From Elusimicrobiota bacterium (GTDB lineage: Bacteria > Elusimicrobiota > Elusimicrobia > UBA1565): DNA of 64,000 nucleotides. The first letter of the stretch is position 1; each line of letters begins with the position of its first letter. The position numbers were made by a program. The stretch lies in NCBI GenBank assembly GCA_016218495.1, contig JACRDU010000124.1, positions 6,681 to 70,680 of the forward strand, read 5' to 3'. Shown here one piece after another: positions 3,001 through 12,000 of this stretch.

Positions 3001-6000
3001 CCGTGGACTGGCGCAGCCGTTCCTCGAGGCGGGTGATCTCGCTTTCCAGGGCGGCCAGGGCCTTGGGGCGGCCGCGGGTCTCTGTCTCCATCGCAGCCAT
3101 ACGATACTCGGGCGGGAGGGGGGGAATCAAGCGGGGCCGATGTCAAACATTGATAACATCGGAATGTGAGGATCCTCGGAATCTCGGCCTTCTACCACGA
3201 TTCGGCCGCCTGCATCGTGCAGGACGGCGTGGTGCTGGGCGCCGCCCAGGAGGAGCGCTTCTCGCGCAGGAAGCACGACGCGGCCTTCCCCTCCGGGGCC
3301 GCGGCCTGGTGCCTGGCGCGGGCGGGCATCCCGGCCTCCGGGCTCGACGCCGTGGCCTTCTACGACAAGCCCCTGCTCAAGTTCGAGCGCATCCTCGAGA
3401 CCGCCCTGTCCTTCGCTCCGCGCGGCTTCCGTTCGTTCCAGGCGGCGATGCCGGTCTGGGCCAAGGAGAAGCTCTGGACGCGCGAGGTGCTGCGCCGGGA
3501 GCTGGCAGGCTACGACGGCCCCATCCGCTTCCTCGAGCACCACGAGTCCCATGCCGCCTCGGCGTTCTTCCCGTCTCCCTTCCAGGAGGCCGCCGTCCTG
3601 ACCATGGACGGGGTGGGGGAATGGGCCACTTCCTCCATAGGGCGGGGCGCCGGGAACCGCCTGGAGGTCCTAAAAGAGCTGCACTTCCCGCATTCGCTGG
3701 GACTGCTCTATTCGGCCTTCACCTACTACGCGGGCTTCAAGGTGAACTCCGGCGAGTACAAGGTCATGGGCCTGGCCCCCTACGGCCAGCCCCGCTACAA
3801 GGACCTCATCCTGCGCGAGCTCGTCGACCTGCGCCCGGACGGCTCGCTCAAGCTCAACATGGACTACTTCGGCTACGGCGCGGGCTTGACGATGACCAAT
3901 GAACGCTTCCATTCATTGTTCGGCGGCCCGCCGCGCCGCCCGGAGTCGGAGCTGACCCAGCGCGTCAAGGACCTGGCGGCCTCCGTGCAGGCGGTCTGCG
4001 AGGAGGCCATGCTCAAGATGGCGCGCGAGGCGCTGCGCGTCGCCGGTTCGCGGAACCTGTGCCTGGCCGGTGGGGTGGCGCTCAACTGCGTCGGCAACGG
4101 GCGCATCCTGCGCGAGGCCGGGGTCGACGGGCTGTGGGTCCAGCCGGCGGCCGGGGACGCGGGCGGGGCGCTGGGCGCGGCCCTGTTCGTCTGGCACCAG
4201 CTCCAGGGCAATCCGCGCCGCGCCGCCGGGCGGGCCGACTCGAGGCGCGGCGCCTTCCTCGGGCCGGAGTATTCGGACGCCGAGGTCGAGGCCTGCCTCG
4301 CCGAGGCCGGGGCCGTCTATGCGAAGGCGTCCCCTGAGGAGGTCGCGGGGAAGCTCGCCGCCGGAGCCGTGGTGGGCTGGTTCCAGGGCGCGCTGGAGTT
4401 CGGCCCCCGCGCGCTGGGGGGGCGCAGCATCCTCGGCGACCCGCGCGCGTCCGACATGCAGAGGCGCATGAACCTGAAGATCAAGGGCCGCGAGTCGTTC
4501 CGCCCGTTCGCGCCGGCCGTGCTCCGGGAACGCGCGGGAGACTATTTCGAGCTGGGCTGCGCCAGCCCCTACATGCTGGTGACCGCGCGCGTGAAGGAGG
4601 GGGGCGGGCTGCCGGCCGTCACCCATGTCGACGGTTCGGCGCGCGTCCAGACCGTGGCGCGGGCGGACAACGCCCCGTTTTACGAGCTGCTCCAGGCCTT
4701 CCAGCGCAAGACGGGGTGCCCCGTGCTGGTCAACACCTCCTTCAACGTGCGCGGCGAACCCATCGTCATGAGCCCCCGGCAAGCCTATGCCTGCTTCATG
4801 CGCACCGAGATGGACTACCTGGCCATCGGGGGCTTCCTCCTCGACAAGAGGCTGCAGCCCGCCGTCTTGCGGGACGATTCCTGGAAGAAGGAGTTCGTCC
4901 TTGATTGACTCCGCGGCCCTGCGCAGGCGCTGCGAGCCCGTGCTGCGCGCCTGGATGCGCCTGGCCGGCGCGCTGGCGGAGCTCAACGCCGCCCTCGTCC
5001 TGTCCGCGCTCTGGGTCCTGGTGTTCGTGCCGTGGGGGCTGGTGCGGGTCCTGGCCGGCGTCGAGCTCTTGGACCTGCGCTTCCGGGACAAGGCCGGCTA
5101 CTGGCGCGACCGCGCGCCGCGGCCCCCGGAATCCTACAATCGGCTATTCTAAGGAGAGCTATGGAGCTGCTGAGGGACCTGTGGGCCTTCATGAAGGAGC
5201 GCAAGAAGTGGTGGCTGGGGCCCATCATCCTCATCCTGGCCCTCTTCGGCGCCCTGCTCGTCTTCACGCAGGGTTCGGCCGTCGCCCCTTTCATCTATAC
5301 GCTCTTTTGACCGGCTCTCTCCTATATTGCACCATCCCCGCGTGCAGGGCCCCGGTCTTGTCCTCGAGCGTCTGAGCCGGCGTCTGGCCGAGTGTCCCCC
5401 GGATTTCCTGGCCGACCCGGCCAGGCTGGGCGGCCCCGGCGTCGTCGTCCCGGCCGTCGCCGCGGACCTGCTCTGCTCGCTCGGCGGCTCCCCGCTCGAC
5501 GAGGTCCGGGCCGCGGGGATCCAGGGCGCGGAGTCCGCGCCTTTCGCGCGCAACAGGCTCGGCCTCGCGCTGGCGGCCTGTTGGCTGCTCGCAGACCCGT
5601 GGTTCAGGGAGGCCGGGGGCTTGGCGGCACGGGCGGAGGCCCTGCTCCGGTCCGGCCTCGACGCGCTGGCCGGGGCGGTCCGCTTCGAGGAGTGCGTGAC
5701 GGCGGCCGACCGCCGCGAAGAGCTGGTCCGAGTCGTGCTGGCCGCGTTGGGCCTGCGGCCGGACGGGGAGACGCCCGAGCAGGCCGAGGACAGGCTCCGT
5801 TCCCTCGACAGCGTCGAGACCCGCCGCGTCGCCGAGCTGTCGGCCGAGCGGACGGCCCGCGCGCGAGAGGTCGCGCGCCGCATGGCGCGCAAGGCGGCCG
5901 CCGAGGCGGCGGCCAAGGTGTCGCGCGAATGAGCGTCCCCGCCGCGCTCAAAGAGCGGGTCCCGTTGGTCACCGCCGCGGGAGTCGCCCGCTTCAAGCGG

Positions 6001-9000: not shown

Positions 9001-12000
9001 CTGACTTACCCCGCCGTTACCCGCCGGCAATCTCCACGCAAAGCCCGCCGGGCATCCTGGGGGCAGGACGGGGGGAACATGAAGGAACGAGGGGTCTGGC
9101 TGCCGTTGTCCTTGGCCGTGCTGTCCGCGCTGGCATATCTGTTCACTCTGACGACGCGCGAACGCCAGCTCCTGGGCGACCTGGAGACGATCAAGATACT
9201 CTACGCGTCGGCGGACCTGCCCGAGCGCATGCGCCTCGAGGAGCGCTTCGTGCAGGTGCGCTCCATCCCGCGCCGCTACGCGCCCCCCGACGCCTTCGAG
9301 GTGCGCGCGCCCTCCGACATGCGCATGGTGTCGGGCCTGGTGACGCGCGTGCGCGTGCCCAAGGGCGGGGCGCTGGTGCAGTCCGCGCTGACGTCCTATT
9401 CCCCGGGCTCCGGCCTGTCGGTCAAGGTCCCGCCGGGCTACCGCGCGGCGGTGCTGCCGGTGGAGCGCGACCTGGCCGCCCTGATGAAGCCGGGCGACCG
9501 GGTGGACGTCGTGGTCACCTTCGAGGCGATGATGGCCCAGGGCGGCCGCCAGAAGGTCACGGCCACCATCCTGCAGAACCTGCTCGTGCTCTCCGTGGGC
9601 AAGGACCTGGGGGCGGCTGCGGGGAAGGCGGACGGAGGGGGCGAAGACAAATCCGCGGCGTTCAGCCAGACCGAGACGGTCAGCGTGGCCGTGAACCCCT
9701 TCGAGTTCCAGTACCTGGCGCTGGCCGGGGAGACGGGCCGCCTGGGGATTTCGCTCCGGGCGCCGGGGGACATCGAGATCCACCCCATCCAGATGGCGTC
9801 CTTGGCGAAGCTGTTCGGTTCCTAAGGGGCGGCCCCCACGGCGACTGTCTGTGCGTCGGAGCGCCCGCGGTCGTCGACGACGCGTACCAACGTCGTTCCG
9901 GGCGAGGGATCCCAGTAGAGCGTCTCCCCGGGCTTGGCCCGCCCCAGGAAACGCTCCCCCGCGAACCAGTAGAGCGCCGCCGCCCCGGCGTCGGCGACGG
10001 CGGTCAGGGGGAGGGGCTCCGCGCCCGCCCCGCTCAGCGGCCTGGCGTAAGCCCCGGCCCCGGTGGGCGAGGTGATGCGCGGCGGAGCGCCCTCGACGGT
10101 GCCGGGCGGGGACAGTCGCGGGAGGCCTGCGGCGCGCAGGATGCGGGCCAGGTCGGAGGGCCAGAACTCATAGACCCGCCCCGCCACTCGTCGGTGCAGG
10201 GCGCAGGTTTCGATGGGGGATACCCCGGCGATGAACCATGCCGCCACAGTCCGCGGACAGTCGGCGCCGGGTAGGCGGCCGGAGACCGGGCATACCCGGA
10301 GCCGACTGACGCGCTCGGGGCGTACGGCCTCCACCCGGTCGCCCGACTCCAGACGCTGGCGCAGGGCGTCCATGACGCGGAAGAACAGCGGACCGGCCGC
10401 CTGGGTGCCTACGAAGGCAGGGTTGCCCGCTCCGCTGAAGTCTCCCACCCACACCACCAGGACGAAGCGTCCCATGACGCCGACCGCCCAGGCGTCACGG
10501 AAGGCCCACGAAGTGCCGGTCTTCCAGTACACCGGGACGGCGTCGCGCGTCCAGCGCGAGCGGAAGCTCTGGCCGGGGCGCGGCACTTCCTTGAGGATGT
10601 CCATGGTCAACCAGCAGGCCTCGGGGCCGAGCAGGCGCCTGCCGTCGCCGGGGGGCGCGTCGAGCCGGCGGCGCAGCGGCCGGACTACGCCACCGTCTGC
10701 CAGCATTGCGTAGAGACGGGCCAGGTCCTCCATCGTCACCTCGGCGTCCCCCAGGGCCAGCGCCAGGCCGTAGTGCTCGCGGGGAAACGGCAGCGAGGTC
10801 CCCGCGCGGCGCAGGATGTCGTAGAGGTCGGGTTCGGAGATTCGGGCGGCCAGGCCGATGACAGGCACATTCCGGCTGCGCACGAGGGCCTCGCGGGCTG
10901 AGACGGGCCCCTGGTAGCTTCCATCGAAATTCTCGGGACTGAAGTCCCCGAAGCGGGTCGGCGCATCATTGAGGACGGTGGCTGGATGGACCAGGCCCTG
11001 CTCGAAGGCGCGCGCGTAGACCAGAGGCTTGAGGGCCGAGCCGGGCGAACGCGGCGCGCGCGTGCCGTCGACCTGACCCGAGATCCGGGCGTCGAGGTAG
11101 TCCGCCGACCCCACGGCGGCCAGCACCTCCATGCCGCGCCGGTCGACCAGGAGCGCGGCCGCGTTATGGATGCCCTCGGCTCTCCGGAAGGCCACATAGT
11201 CCCGGAGCTGGCGCTCGAGCAGGGCTTGGAGGCCGGGGTCGATGGTGGACACGATGACGGGCGAGCGTTCCCCGTCCGCGCCCAGCAGGGCATCGACGGC
11301 ATGAGGGGCCCGGAACGGCAGATCCCGCGCGCCACGTGAGTCCGCCCGGCCGGCCAGGAGCGGTCCGCGTCGCGACGGGCTTTGGGGGAGGGCGGCCAGA
11401 GCCTCGGCCTCGGCGGCGACGAGGTTCCCCGGTTCCTTGCCGAAATAGATGAGGCTGGCGGCCGCGGCACCTTCGATTCCGCCGCCATAGGGGGCGCTGT
11501 TGAGGTACGCCTCCAAGATGTCGTCCTTCGGGTAGAGCAACTCGAGGGTGAGTGCGGCGAGCATCTGGCGGAGCTTGCCGGCCGGCCGGCGGGTGCGCAG
11601 GCGGCCGCGCAGGCGGGCCAGCTGCATCGTCACTGTGGACCCGCCGGCGCGGCGGCCTAGGACATAGGTCGACCAGACCGCGCGCACCAGGCCGAAGGGG
11701 TCGACTCCGGGGTGCAGGCGGAAGCGCCTGTCCTCGCGCGCCAGGGTGGCGCGGACGAGCTCGGGGCCCAGCGCCCCGAGCGGGCGCCACAGCCGGTAGC
11801 GCCCGTCCGGGGCCGTGGTGAGGCGCAGGAGGCCGCCCTCCCTGTCGTAAACGGCCTGGGGATAGCCTGCGGGGTCCTTGAGCGGGGGGGCGGGCGGGCT
11901 CGGGCCGGCCGCCGCCACGGCCGCAACGGCCGCGAAGGCCAAGAGCGCCGCCGCCTTCCGGCGGGTCACTGCCGTCGCGCCACGCGAAGGCGCCCGGGGA

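Follow-up and report, generated by a model that had tools for sequence, protein, structure and literature searches.

The 64,000-nt window analysed here (the whole stretch of DNA presented above, from contig JACRDU010000124.1 of an Elusimicrobiota bacterium, 72% GC) carries on its forward strand a cassette of four genes that we call gA, gB, rSAM1 (or gC) and MPE (or gD). They encode, in this order, an orphan protein, an adenylate-forming ligase of the ANL superfamily, a radical S-adenosylmethionine (radical SAM, rSAM) enzyme and a metallophosphoesterase (MPE) (Table 1). Our analysis established that gA, gB and rSAM1 are the minimal three-gene form of a widespread, undescribed multi-gene system, the core of which is gA together with gB.

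A preliminary description of this DNA had proposed four overlapping genes, and all four exist. The stop codon of gA and the start codon of gB share ATGA at 5929–5932, those of gB and rSAM1 share GTGA at 7317–7320 and those of rSAM1 and MPE share ATGA at 8039–8042. The start of gA is more probably the GTG at 5342, since the GenBank protein has 196 amino acids (aa) and the family N-terminus MxxEGPxLExL aligns there; the alternative TTG at 5327 would give 201 aa. All four open reading frames (ORFs) show on the + strand the codon third-position GC (GC3) periodicity typical of real genes, with third-position GC of 0.89–0.98, and are under purifying selection relative to their relatives (pairwise ratios of nonsynonymous to synonymous substitution, dN/dS, of 0.10–0.41). 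The window proteins are identical to GenBank entries from a 107.7-kb contig of an “Elusimicrobia bacterium” metagenome-assembled genome (MAG). Overlaps of 4 nt are frequent in prokaryotes; they back an operon here and are not in themselves proof of a shared pathway.

Gene products of the cassette

The gA protein of the window matched nothing in Pfam, NCBIfam or PADLOC, and when 116 members of its family were searched against Pfam one at a time only scattered noise was obtained, LcrG for example in 8 of them. Its AlphaFold2 model is confident and all-helical (predicted local distance difference test, pLDDT, 94.7), ends in a C-terminal helix of 39 residues and has no detectable structural relative in the Protein Data Bank (PDB). 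Assignment as an acyl carrier protein was rejected, as the serine of the LDSVE stretch is replaced by Thr or Gly in homologues, hence there is no phosphopantetheine site.

Membership of gB in the ANL superfamily is clear from the motifs TAGTTGHP, YSLVETG and RYRTGD and a C-terminal Lys at about position 450, which are intact and conserved across 101 gB sequences, and on these motifs the enzyme should be catalytically active. Its best PDB sequence matches are PaaK-type ligases (E 4.5e-15), and with PaaK and PaaK-like ligases (PDB 9s3l, 4r1l, 2y27; DVU_1553 family) it shares the short PaaK-type architecture, the P-loop TxGTTG, YxxxE, YRTGD and the C-terminal Lys. Unlike them, it has an N-terminal extension of ~60 aa, is paired with the orphan gA, has no paa genes nearby and lies far under every equivalog cut-off: its best NCBIfam match, the uncharacterised DVU_1553-family ligase, scores 101 bits against 300, and the PaaK models (TIGR02155 / NF041878) 22.2 bits against 646 and 56.7 against 700, which rules out a PaaK equivalog. 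Pfam AMP-binding gives 21.7 bits on the window protein, below its cut-off of 29.9. As to a coenzyme F390 synthetase, the examined flanks showed no F420 genes, and the host is a bacterial MAG.

The product of rSAM1 belongs to the radical SAM superfamily, with Pfam Radical_SAM at 30.6 bits against a gathering score of 29.5, the motifs C26xxxC30xxC33 and GGE, and the extra conserved residues Cys36, Cys88 and Cys94. It stays far below every NCBIfam equivalog cut-off, those of MoaA, viperin, BlsE and PqqE included. PADLOC returned only weak pVip-like matches, to the rSAM N-terminus, and rSAM1 is not a prokaryotic viperin (pVip; NF038283 cut-off, 180 bits). Scores and context together exclude QueE, a PflA-type activase (PflA, NrdG), viperin and MoaA, and none of the four genes resolves into a well-known housekeeping family. 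In structure rSAM1 comes closest to the peptide-modifying enzymes EpeE and SkfB, at an identity of only 15–17% and with nucleotide-acting rSAMs scoring nearly as well. In contrast to EpeE/YydG (8ai1) and SkfB (6efn), the 241-aa rSAM1 has no SPASM/twitch or RRE domain, its three other conserved cysteines set it apart, and its candidate substrate would be no short peptide but a folded protein of 196 aa. The rSAM1 family is unusually well conserved, with 64–85% identity across phyla.

The fourth gene product is a calcineurin-like MPE (Pfam Metallophos 46.6 bits, cut-off 21.5) with the metal-binding motifs DVH105, GD134, GNID163 and GHTH252 and hydrophobic segments at residues 1–28 and 55–74. Such metal motifs and N-terminal membrane segments are also those of YaeI, LpxG and LpxH; the first two are the best NCBIfam matches, yet at 109.9 bits against 188 for YaeI and 84.6 against 350 for LpxG neither is an equivalog. 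It further differs from these enzymes in that its GNHD/E motif reads GNID, in having no lipid A context and in being tied to rSAM1 only in the lineage of the window. Taken together, the enzyme classes of the preliminary description held up in hidden Markov model (HMM) searches: judged by these profiles, the enzymes come from known superfamilies (ANL, radical SAM, MPE), none appears to fall into a curated functional family, and gA, as well as the protein X described below, ranks as an orphan.

The gA–gB pair and its partners across phyla

A word-indexed search found at least 192 homologues of gA, nearly all of ~195 aa and unnamed, and a profile search of 1.84 billion representatives gave 759 clusters (50% identity level), of which 396 reached E ≤ 1e-30, with no domain fusion among the best 150 clusters listed. 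When one genome per species was scanned, relatives were present in 369 species of about 185,000, from the Acidobacteriota, Chloroflexota (Anaerolineales), Verrucomicrobiota, Planctomycetota, Desulfobacterota, Myxococcota and Burkholderiales. Cultured strains are among them, such as Undibacterium pigrum DSM 19792 (gA WP_110256530.1) and Massilia sp. Root418 (gA WP_056405162.1). The window gA is 44–80% identical to 115 homologues.

What is most constant in this family is the end of the protein. The window gA ends in Arg-Glu, and a C-terminal Glu is found in 103 of 120 close homologues, mostly as Arg-Glu; among 142 representatives at the 50% identity level the last residue is Glu in 135 and the end is Arg-Glu in 119, independently of the accessory module present. 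Every one of the six Arg, two Glu and three stop codons occurs at this end, and gA overlaps gB in only 18 of 98 loci. The varied codons and stops and the few overlaps therefore argue for selection on the end of the protein and not on a nucleotide signal, and they rule out that the terminal Glu arises from the ATGA overlap or from a ribosome-binding site for gB. A minority of gA proteins (about 13 in the sets examined; P0019, P0030, P0039, P0271, P0276 and others) end in Arg-Glu-Trp, with one extra genome-encoded residue.

Gene neighbourhoods were compared in 78 species-level loci and 12 metagenome loci, classed by tblastn against reference proteins (coverage thresholds of 25–40%, E < 1e-6); many contigs come from fragmented MAGs, and the counts are lower bounds. 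The preliminary description had asked for a test of neighbourhood conservation with the first gene as query, and this neighbourhood is conserved, gB lying immediately 3′ of gA for 70 of the 87 gA copies in the 78 loci; the conserved unit, however, is not the four genes of the window. The usual order is a MoxR-like AAA+ ATPase (~526 aa), the orphan X (~330 aa), a protein Y (~596 aa), in some loci a SPASM-type rSAM (~320 aa), then gA, gB and a tail, which consists of PnuC and a NadR-like NMNAT/RNK protein, or of rSAM1 and a second radical SAM enzyme, rSAM2, or rarely of an EEP phosphoesterase. Matches to gB were obtained in 67 of the 78 loci, to Y in 65, X in 56, AAA+ in 51, NadR in 43, PnuC in 34, the SPASM-type rSAM in 25, rSAM1 in 6 and rSAM2 in 4; MPE and the carbamoyltransferase that precedes the cassette in the window had no match in any.

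From its invariant HEIGHH motif and its DxSGS metal-ion-dependent adhesion site (MIDAS) motif, Y looks like a fusion of a zinc-peptidase-like domain with a VWA domain. X has no PDB or Pfam relative, and homology of gA to X or to Y was rejected (hhalign probability below 1%). In 20 loci the SPASM-type rSAM stands immediately upstream of gA; it resembles the mycofactocin- and PapB-type maturases, with scores far below their cut-offs. Several loci (L016, L025, L065, L084, L085 and others) have two gA–gB pairs in tandem, typically in the order AAA+–X–Y–gA–gB–(NadR)–rSAM–gA–gB–PnuC–(NadR), which suggests that gA and gB are cognate and co-evolving.

A search from the side of rSAM1 added 80 metagenome loci, of which 50 were informative upstream and 48 downstream of this gene. 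Directly upstream lies gB in 40 of the 50, and directly downstream lies rSAM2 in 46 of the 48; at one locus (L166) a methyltransferase and a short AAA_28 kinase come after the rSAM1–rSAM2 pair. None of the 48 has MPE after rSAM1, and none of the 80 matches the carbamoyltransferase. Together with the absence of MPE from the 78 genome loci, this rules out MPE as a conserved member of the system. Outside the window it follows rSAM1 only in L175 (85.6% identity); it is a lineage-specific add-on at the usual position of rSAM2.

When 840 flanking ORFs from 81 loci were clustered, the only other recurrent neighbour was a protein of ~770 aa with TCAD9 and Tc-R-P/PTP-like phosphatase regions, in 4 loci. 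In L004 (8791–11100), L024 and L071 it adjoins PnuC–NadR and is convergent on gA–gB; in L046 a homologue lies about 5 kb from NadR. In a single locus, L007, a YjeF-type NAD(P)HX epimerase/dehydratase gene (3837–5369), a link to nicotinamide adenine dinucleotide (NAD), overlaps the start of the AAA+ gene. The flanks of the system are otherwise ordinary chromosomal genes with no recurrent defence genes, and no homologue was found in the plasmid or phage collections, a result on which carriage on mobile elements was rejected.

Modular gain and loss in the lineage of the window

With a ~195-aa gA ending in Arg-Glu and gB directly downstream, the window cassette belongs to the gA–gB system. It does not have the full-length form, with AAA+, X and the HExxH/VWA protein upstream and either PnuC and NadR or rSAM1 and rSAM2 downstream: of these partners rSAM1 alone is present, and AAA+, X, Y, rSAM2, PnuC and NadR have no tblastn match within the 64 kb.

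The close relatives of the window, at synonymous divergence (dS) of 0.4–0.8, each carry a different selection of its genes. While the window reads carbamoyltransferase triad–gA–gB–rSAM1–MPE–CpaB, L091 (gA 76% and rSAM1 86% identical) reads carbamoyltransferase–small ORF–DUF5989–gA–gB–rSAM1, followed by a convergent glycosyltransferase and without MPE. L172, L173 and L015 have peptidase M13–gA–gB–rSAM1 and then a convergent aspartokinase-like gene, again without MPE, and L172 and L173 keep the 4-nt overlaps of the window; the peptidase, a neprilysin-type zinc enzyme of 661 aa, ends 2–3 nt before gA (L015 1019–3004; L172 4041–6026) and may take over the function of the HExxH domain of Y. Conversely, L175 (GCA_016182865.1, JACPFS010000031.1) reads carbamoyltransferase–DUF5989–rSAM1–MPE–CpaB, without gA and gB. 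It is collinear with window positions 3174–5310 and 7329–9734, so that exactly gA and gB are missing (window 5311–7328), and DUF5989 is joined to rSAM1 by a clean TGATG stop/start junction (L175 2180–2186). Its rSAM1 and MPE are under purifying selection (dN/dS about 0.2), and its CpaB gene, 96% identical and syntenic, is missing from the other loci.

The minimal form gA–gB–rSAM1 is seen in three genomic settings with the same 4-nt overlaps. The arrangement in the window is a lineage-specific mosaic in which gA–gB–rSAM1 is the stable unit, and outside the window the carbamoyltransferase triad adjoins genes of the module only in the close relatives L091 and L175. These mixed combinations and the absence of MPE from the 48 and 78 loci do not support the single pathway of four genes first proposed for this cassette.

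Further genes of the window are listed in Table 1. The sxtIJK-like triad and the CpaB-like gene that had been named as flanking the cassette are present, with the SxtJ-like assignment weak and below its cut-off, and the triad stands as a unit of its own, with two of its genes overlapping by 8 nt (4901–4908). The penicillin-binding protein and alpha-2-macroglobulin genes downstream presumably match the yfhM–pbpC pairing of other bacteria.

Table 1. Features of the window around the gA–gB–rSAM1–MPE cassette
Feature	Coordinates	Strand	Product and evidence
ABC-transporter ATPase	963–1844	−	Upstream of the carbamoyltransferase
GntR-family regulator	1841–2212	−	Upstream of the carbamoyltransferase
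PAP2-superfamily phosphatase	2252–3130	−	Just upstream of the carbamoyltransferase
Carbamoyltransferase	3166–4908	+	Carbam_trans_N/C, E 1e-91 and 1e-70; context only
SxtJ-like small membrane protein	4901–5153	+	SxtJ E 0.008, 17 bits, below cut-off (weak); context only
DUF5989 gene	5161–5310	+	DUF5989 E 1e-27, 96 bits (strong); context only
gA	5342–5932	+	196 aa, all-helical orphan; MBI5597056.1, “hypothetical”; C-terminus ...KVSRE
gB	5929–7320	+	463 aa, PaaK-like ANL adenylate-forming enzyme; MBI5597057.1, “phenylacetate-CoA ligase family”
rSAM1 (gC)	7317–8042	+	241 aa, radical SAM enzyme
MPE (gD)	8039–9004	+	321 aa, membrane-anchored calcineurin-like metallophosphoesterase; MBI5597059.1
CpaB/RcpC-like gene	9079–9825	+	TIGR03177 109 bits (cut-off 71), RcpC 65 bits; 75 nt 3′ of MPE; context only
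PBP1C-type penicillin-binding protein and bacterial alpha-2-macroglobulin	9822–17728	−	715 aa (Transgly + Transpeptidase + BiPBP_C) and 1920 aa, 4-nt overlap; convergent with the cassette
Two UDP-glucose/GDP-mannose dehydrogenase family genes	19437–22154	− and +	445 aa (−) and 457 aa (+), back-to-back, divergent

What gA may be for

The partners found across the family (the MoxR-like ATPase, the HExxH/VWA protein, the SPASM-type rSAM, PnuC and NadR) point to protein modification or to NAD-linked chemistry. We lean, tentatively, towards the former, in which gA would be a substrate or carrier, gB would activate the carboxylate of its C-terminal Glu and radical SAM chemistry would modify it. Four observations lead to this reading: the exact C-terminus of gA is conserved at the protein level; the pairing of gA with gB is conserved and sometimes duplicated; rSAM1 and the SPASM-type rSAM that abuts gA look like peptide maturases; and a peptidase/VWA protein and an AAA+ ATPase are partners in the full systems. 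What gB and rSAM1 act on, and what MPE does, we infer as follows. Rather than being an enzyme, gA would serve as a substrate or carrier protein; gB would adenylate a carboxylate with ATP, the most likely one being on the C-terminal Glu of gA, and so activate it for ligation or cyclisation; and rSAM1 would make a radical-mediated change on gA or on its adduct. In the full systems, the SPASM-type rSAM, the MoxR-like AAA+ ATPase and the HExxH-peptidase/VWA protein might further modify, remodel or cleave gA, with PnuC and NadR supplying nicotinamide nucleotide, while in the window MPE might act at the membrane to cleave a by-product or adduct that is a phosphoester. In its most far-reaching version, to which we give little credence for the present, gA would represent a carrier, precursor or tag protein of a new kind, its Arg-Glu end adenylated by an ANL ligase and then remodelled by radical SAM enzymes, in full systems with MoxR/VWA-peptidase processing and a nicotinamide nucleotide as co-substrate, and the outcome would be a cofactor of protein origin, a modified peptide or a covalent protein tag, of a type not described so far.

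Some known systems resemble such a scheme. In the Pup–PafA and LysW–LysX systems, PafA is glutamine-synthetase-like and Pup small and disordered, and LysX is an ATP-grasp enzyme and LysW a small zinc-finger protein. By analogy with these, gA has a near-invariant C-terminal Glu, the neighbouring gene encodes an ATP-dependent, carboxylate-activating ligase and an AAA+ protein is often in the locus; in contrast, gB is an ANL enzyme, gA is a helical domain of 196 aa and no proteasome or lysine-pathway genes are present. The likeness is one of function only, since with an ANL ligase and a folded gA this protein is not a carrier of the Pup/LysW type. The full-length relatives also recall mycofactocin (MftA–C) and pyrroloquinoline quinone (PQQ; PqqA/D/E) biosynthesis, in which a precursor with a conserved C-terminal residue stands beside a SPASM-type rSAM and a peptidase is present. 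Here, however, no RRE/PqqD chaperone was detected, the candidate precursor is a folded protein, and the set includes an ANL ligase and NAD salvage genes; at the sequence level the system belongs to neither.

Several points weigh against gA as the substrate of gB. The link between gB and the C-terminus of gA is one that we infer, and we know of no ANL-family enzyme that adenylates a protein C-terminus. The globular part of gA has invariant charged residues (D42, R125, E126, R130, E143, D150), and a large, well-folded protein with such residues would equally suit a binding or a catalytic subunit. Pairs of rSAM1 and rSAM2 occur among unrelated genes with no gA–gB within 8 kb (L153, L154, L157, L158, L165, L166 and L143); as these pairs, and rSAM1–MPE in L175, persist without an adjacent gA–gB, rSAM1 may not need gA. 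The accessory genes are nucleotide-centred (PnuC, NadR, EEP, MPE and the Tc-R-P phosphatase), and the parts missing from the window may lie elsewhere in the genome, outside the 64 kb.

The main rival, which we consider somewhat unlikely, is a pathway to a small molecule, probably one derived from a nucleotide or from NAD. There gA would not be the substrate of gB but its partner, scaffold or specificity subunit, much as MbtH-like proteins serve the adenylation domains of nonribosomal peptide synthetases. In such a pathway gB would adenylate a small carboxylic acid (nicotinate-type or aryl) or AMPylate a hydroxyl as F390 synthetase does, the rSAMs would carry out a nucleotide rearrangement in the manner of viperin, BlsE and MoaA, and the phosphoesterases, MPE here and EEP elsewhere, would trim phosphates. 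PnuC and the two-domain NadR-like NMNAT/RNK protein (34 and 43 of the 78 loci), EEP or MPE at the tail position in some variants, the Tc-R-P/TCAD9 phosphatase upstream of a convergent PnuC–NadR in 4 loci, the YjeF gene overlapping AAA+ in L007 and the rSAM1–rSAM2 and rSAM1–MPE pairs without gA–gB are all consistent with it. Yet it leaves unexplained why the Arg-Glu end of gA is conserved at the protein level (about 85–95% of the family) and why a maturase-like SPASM rSAM adjacent to gA and an HExxH peptidase accompany it, and no nucleotide-modifying rSAM equivalog comes near its cut-off.

A role in conflict or defence would be compatible with either chemistry, gA modification or a small molecule, though we judge it quite improbable. 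The AAA+/VWA-peptidase part would sense or regulate, gA, gB and rSAM would make or arm an effector, PnuC and NadR would buffer NAD, and the window would be an effector-side remnant. The patchy spread through 369 of about 185,000 species in unrelated phyla, the swappable accessory modules and tandem duplications and the TCAD9-domain protein adjoining the system argue for it. We take TCAD9 to be a domain named from MoxR–vWA ternary conflict systems, and it is not mentioned in the text searched of the paper on those systems. Against such a role, no PADLOC model matches gA, gB, X, Y or AAA+, beyond the weak pVip-like matches to the rSAM N-terminus, plasmid and phage collections hold no homologue, and the ordinary chromosomal flanks have no recurrent defence genes.

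That no characterised pathway combines these enzyme classes, as the preliminary description had it, agrees with our literature search, in which no paper describing this gene set was found. The nearest is an account of a different vWA–MoxR subtype with a radical SAM enzyme, for which a standalone peptide effector is the predicted target of modification (Kaur et al. 2020, PMC7159879); it lends the defence role some further support. Like the MoxR–vWA ternary systems treated in that paper, the full-length relatives of the window have a MoxR-like AAA+ ATPase, a vWA protein and a third conserved protein (PMC7159879). Unlike them, they have no VMAP, iSTAND or FtsH, their vWA protein has an HExxH N-terminal domain, and the third components of the FtsH/VMAP ternary systems described there are other ones; the text searched mentions neither gA nor gB, PnuC or NadR (PMC7159879), and the window itself is without the AAA+, X and vWA genes.

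The reading of the preliminary description, that the four-gene pathway and the adjacent carbamoyltransferase triad build or tailor an envelope component at the membrane, is the most doubtful: the 4-nt overlaps, the gap of only ~30 nt between DUF5989 and gA, the triad–rSAM1 adjacency kept in L091 and L175, rSAM1–MPE–CpaB in L175, purifying selection on all of these and the PAP2, PbpC and alpha-2-macroglobulin genes nearby agree with it, but it rests on lineage-specific synteny, as relatives this close may share a gene order by simple inheritance, three of them are each without a different part of the supposed pathway, and outside the clade the module never stands beside the carbamoyltransferase or MPE, while its minimal form is also found beside peptidase M13.

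The reduced form in the window has thus led to a gene system of hundreds of bacterial species in many phyla, culturable Undibacterium and Massilia included. Signatures of this kind, a conserved pair of last residues together with a paired adenylating enzyme, have been a mark of carrier proteins, protein tags and peptide-derived cofactors before. If it is true that gB acts on the terminus of gA, it would be the first ANL-family ligase known to act on a protein terminus, extending ANL chemistry to proteins, and the system would represent a new pathway of modification or cofactor formation, with a tie to NAD salvage. If gB does not act there, the locus would still define a new nucleotide-centred pathway, and either reading is directly testable in the cultured hosts.

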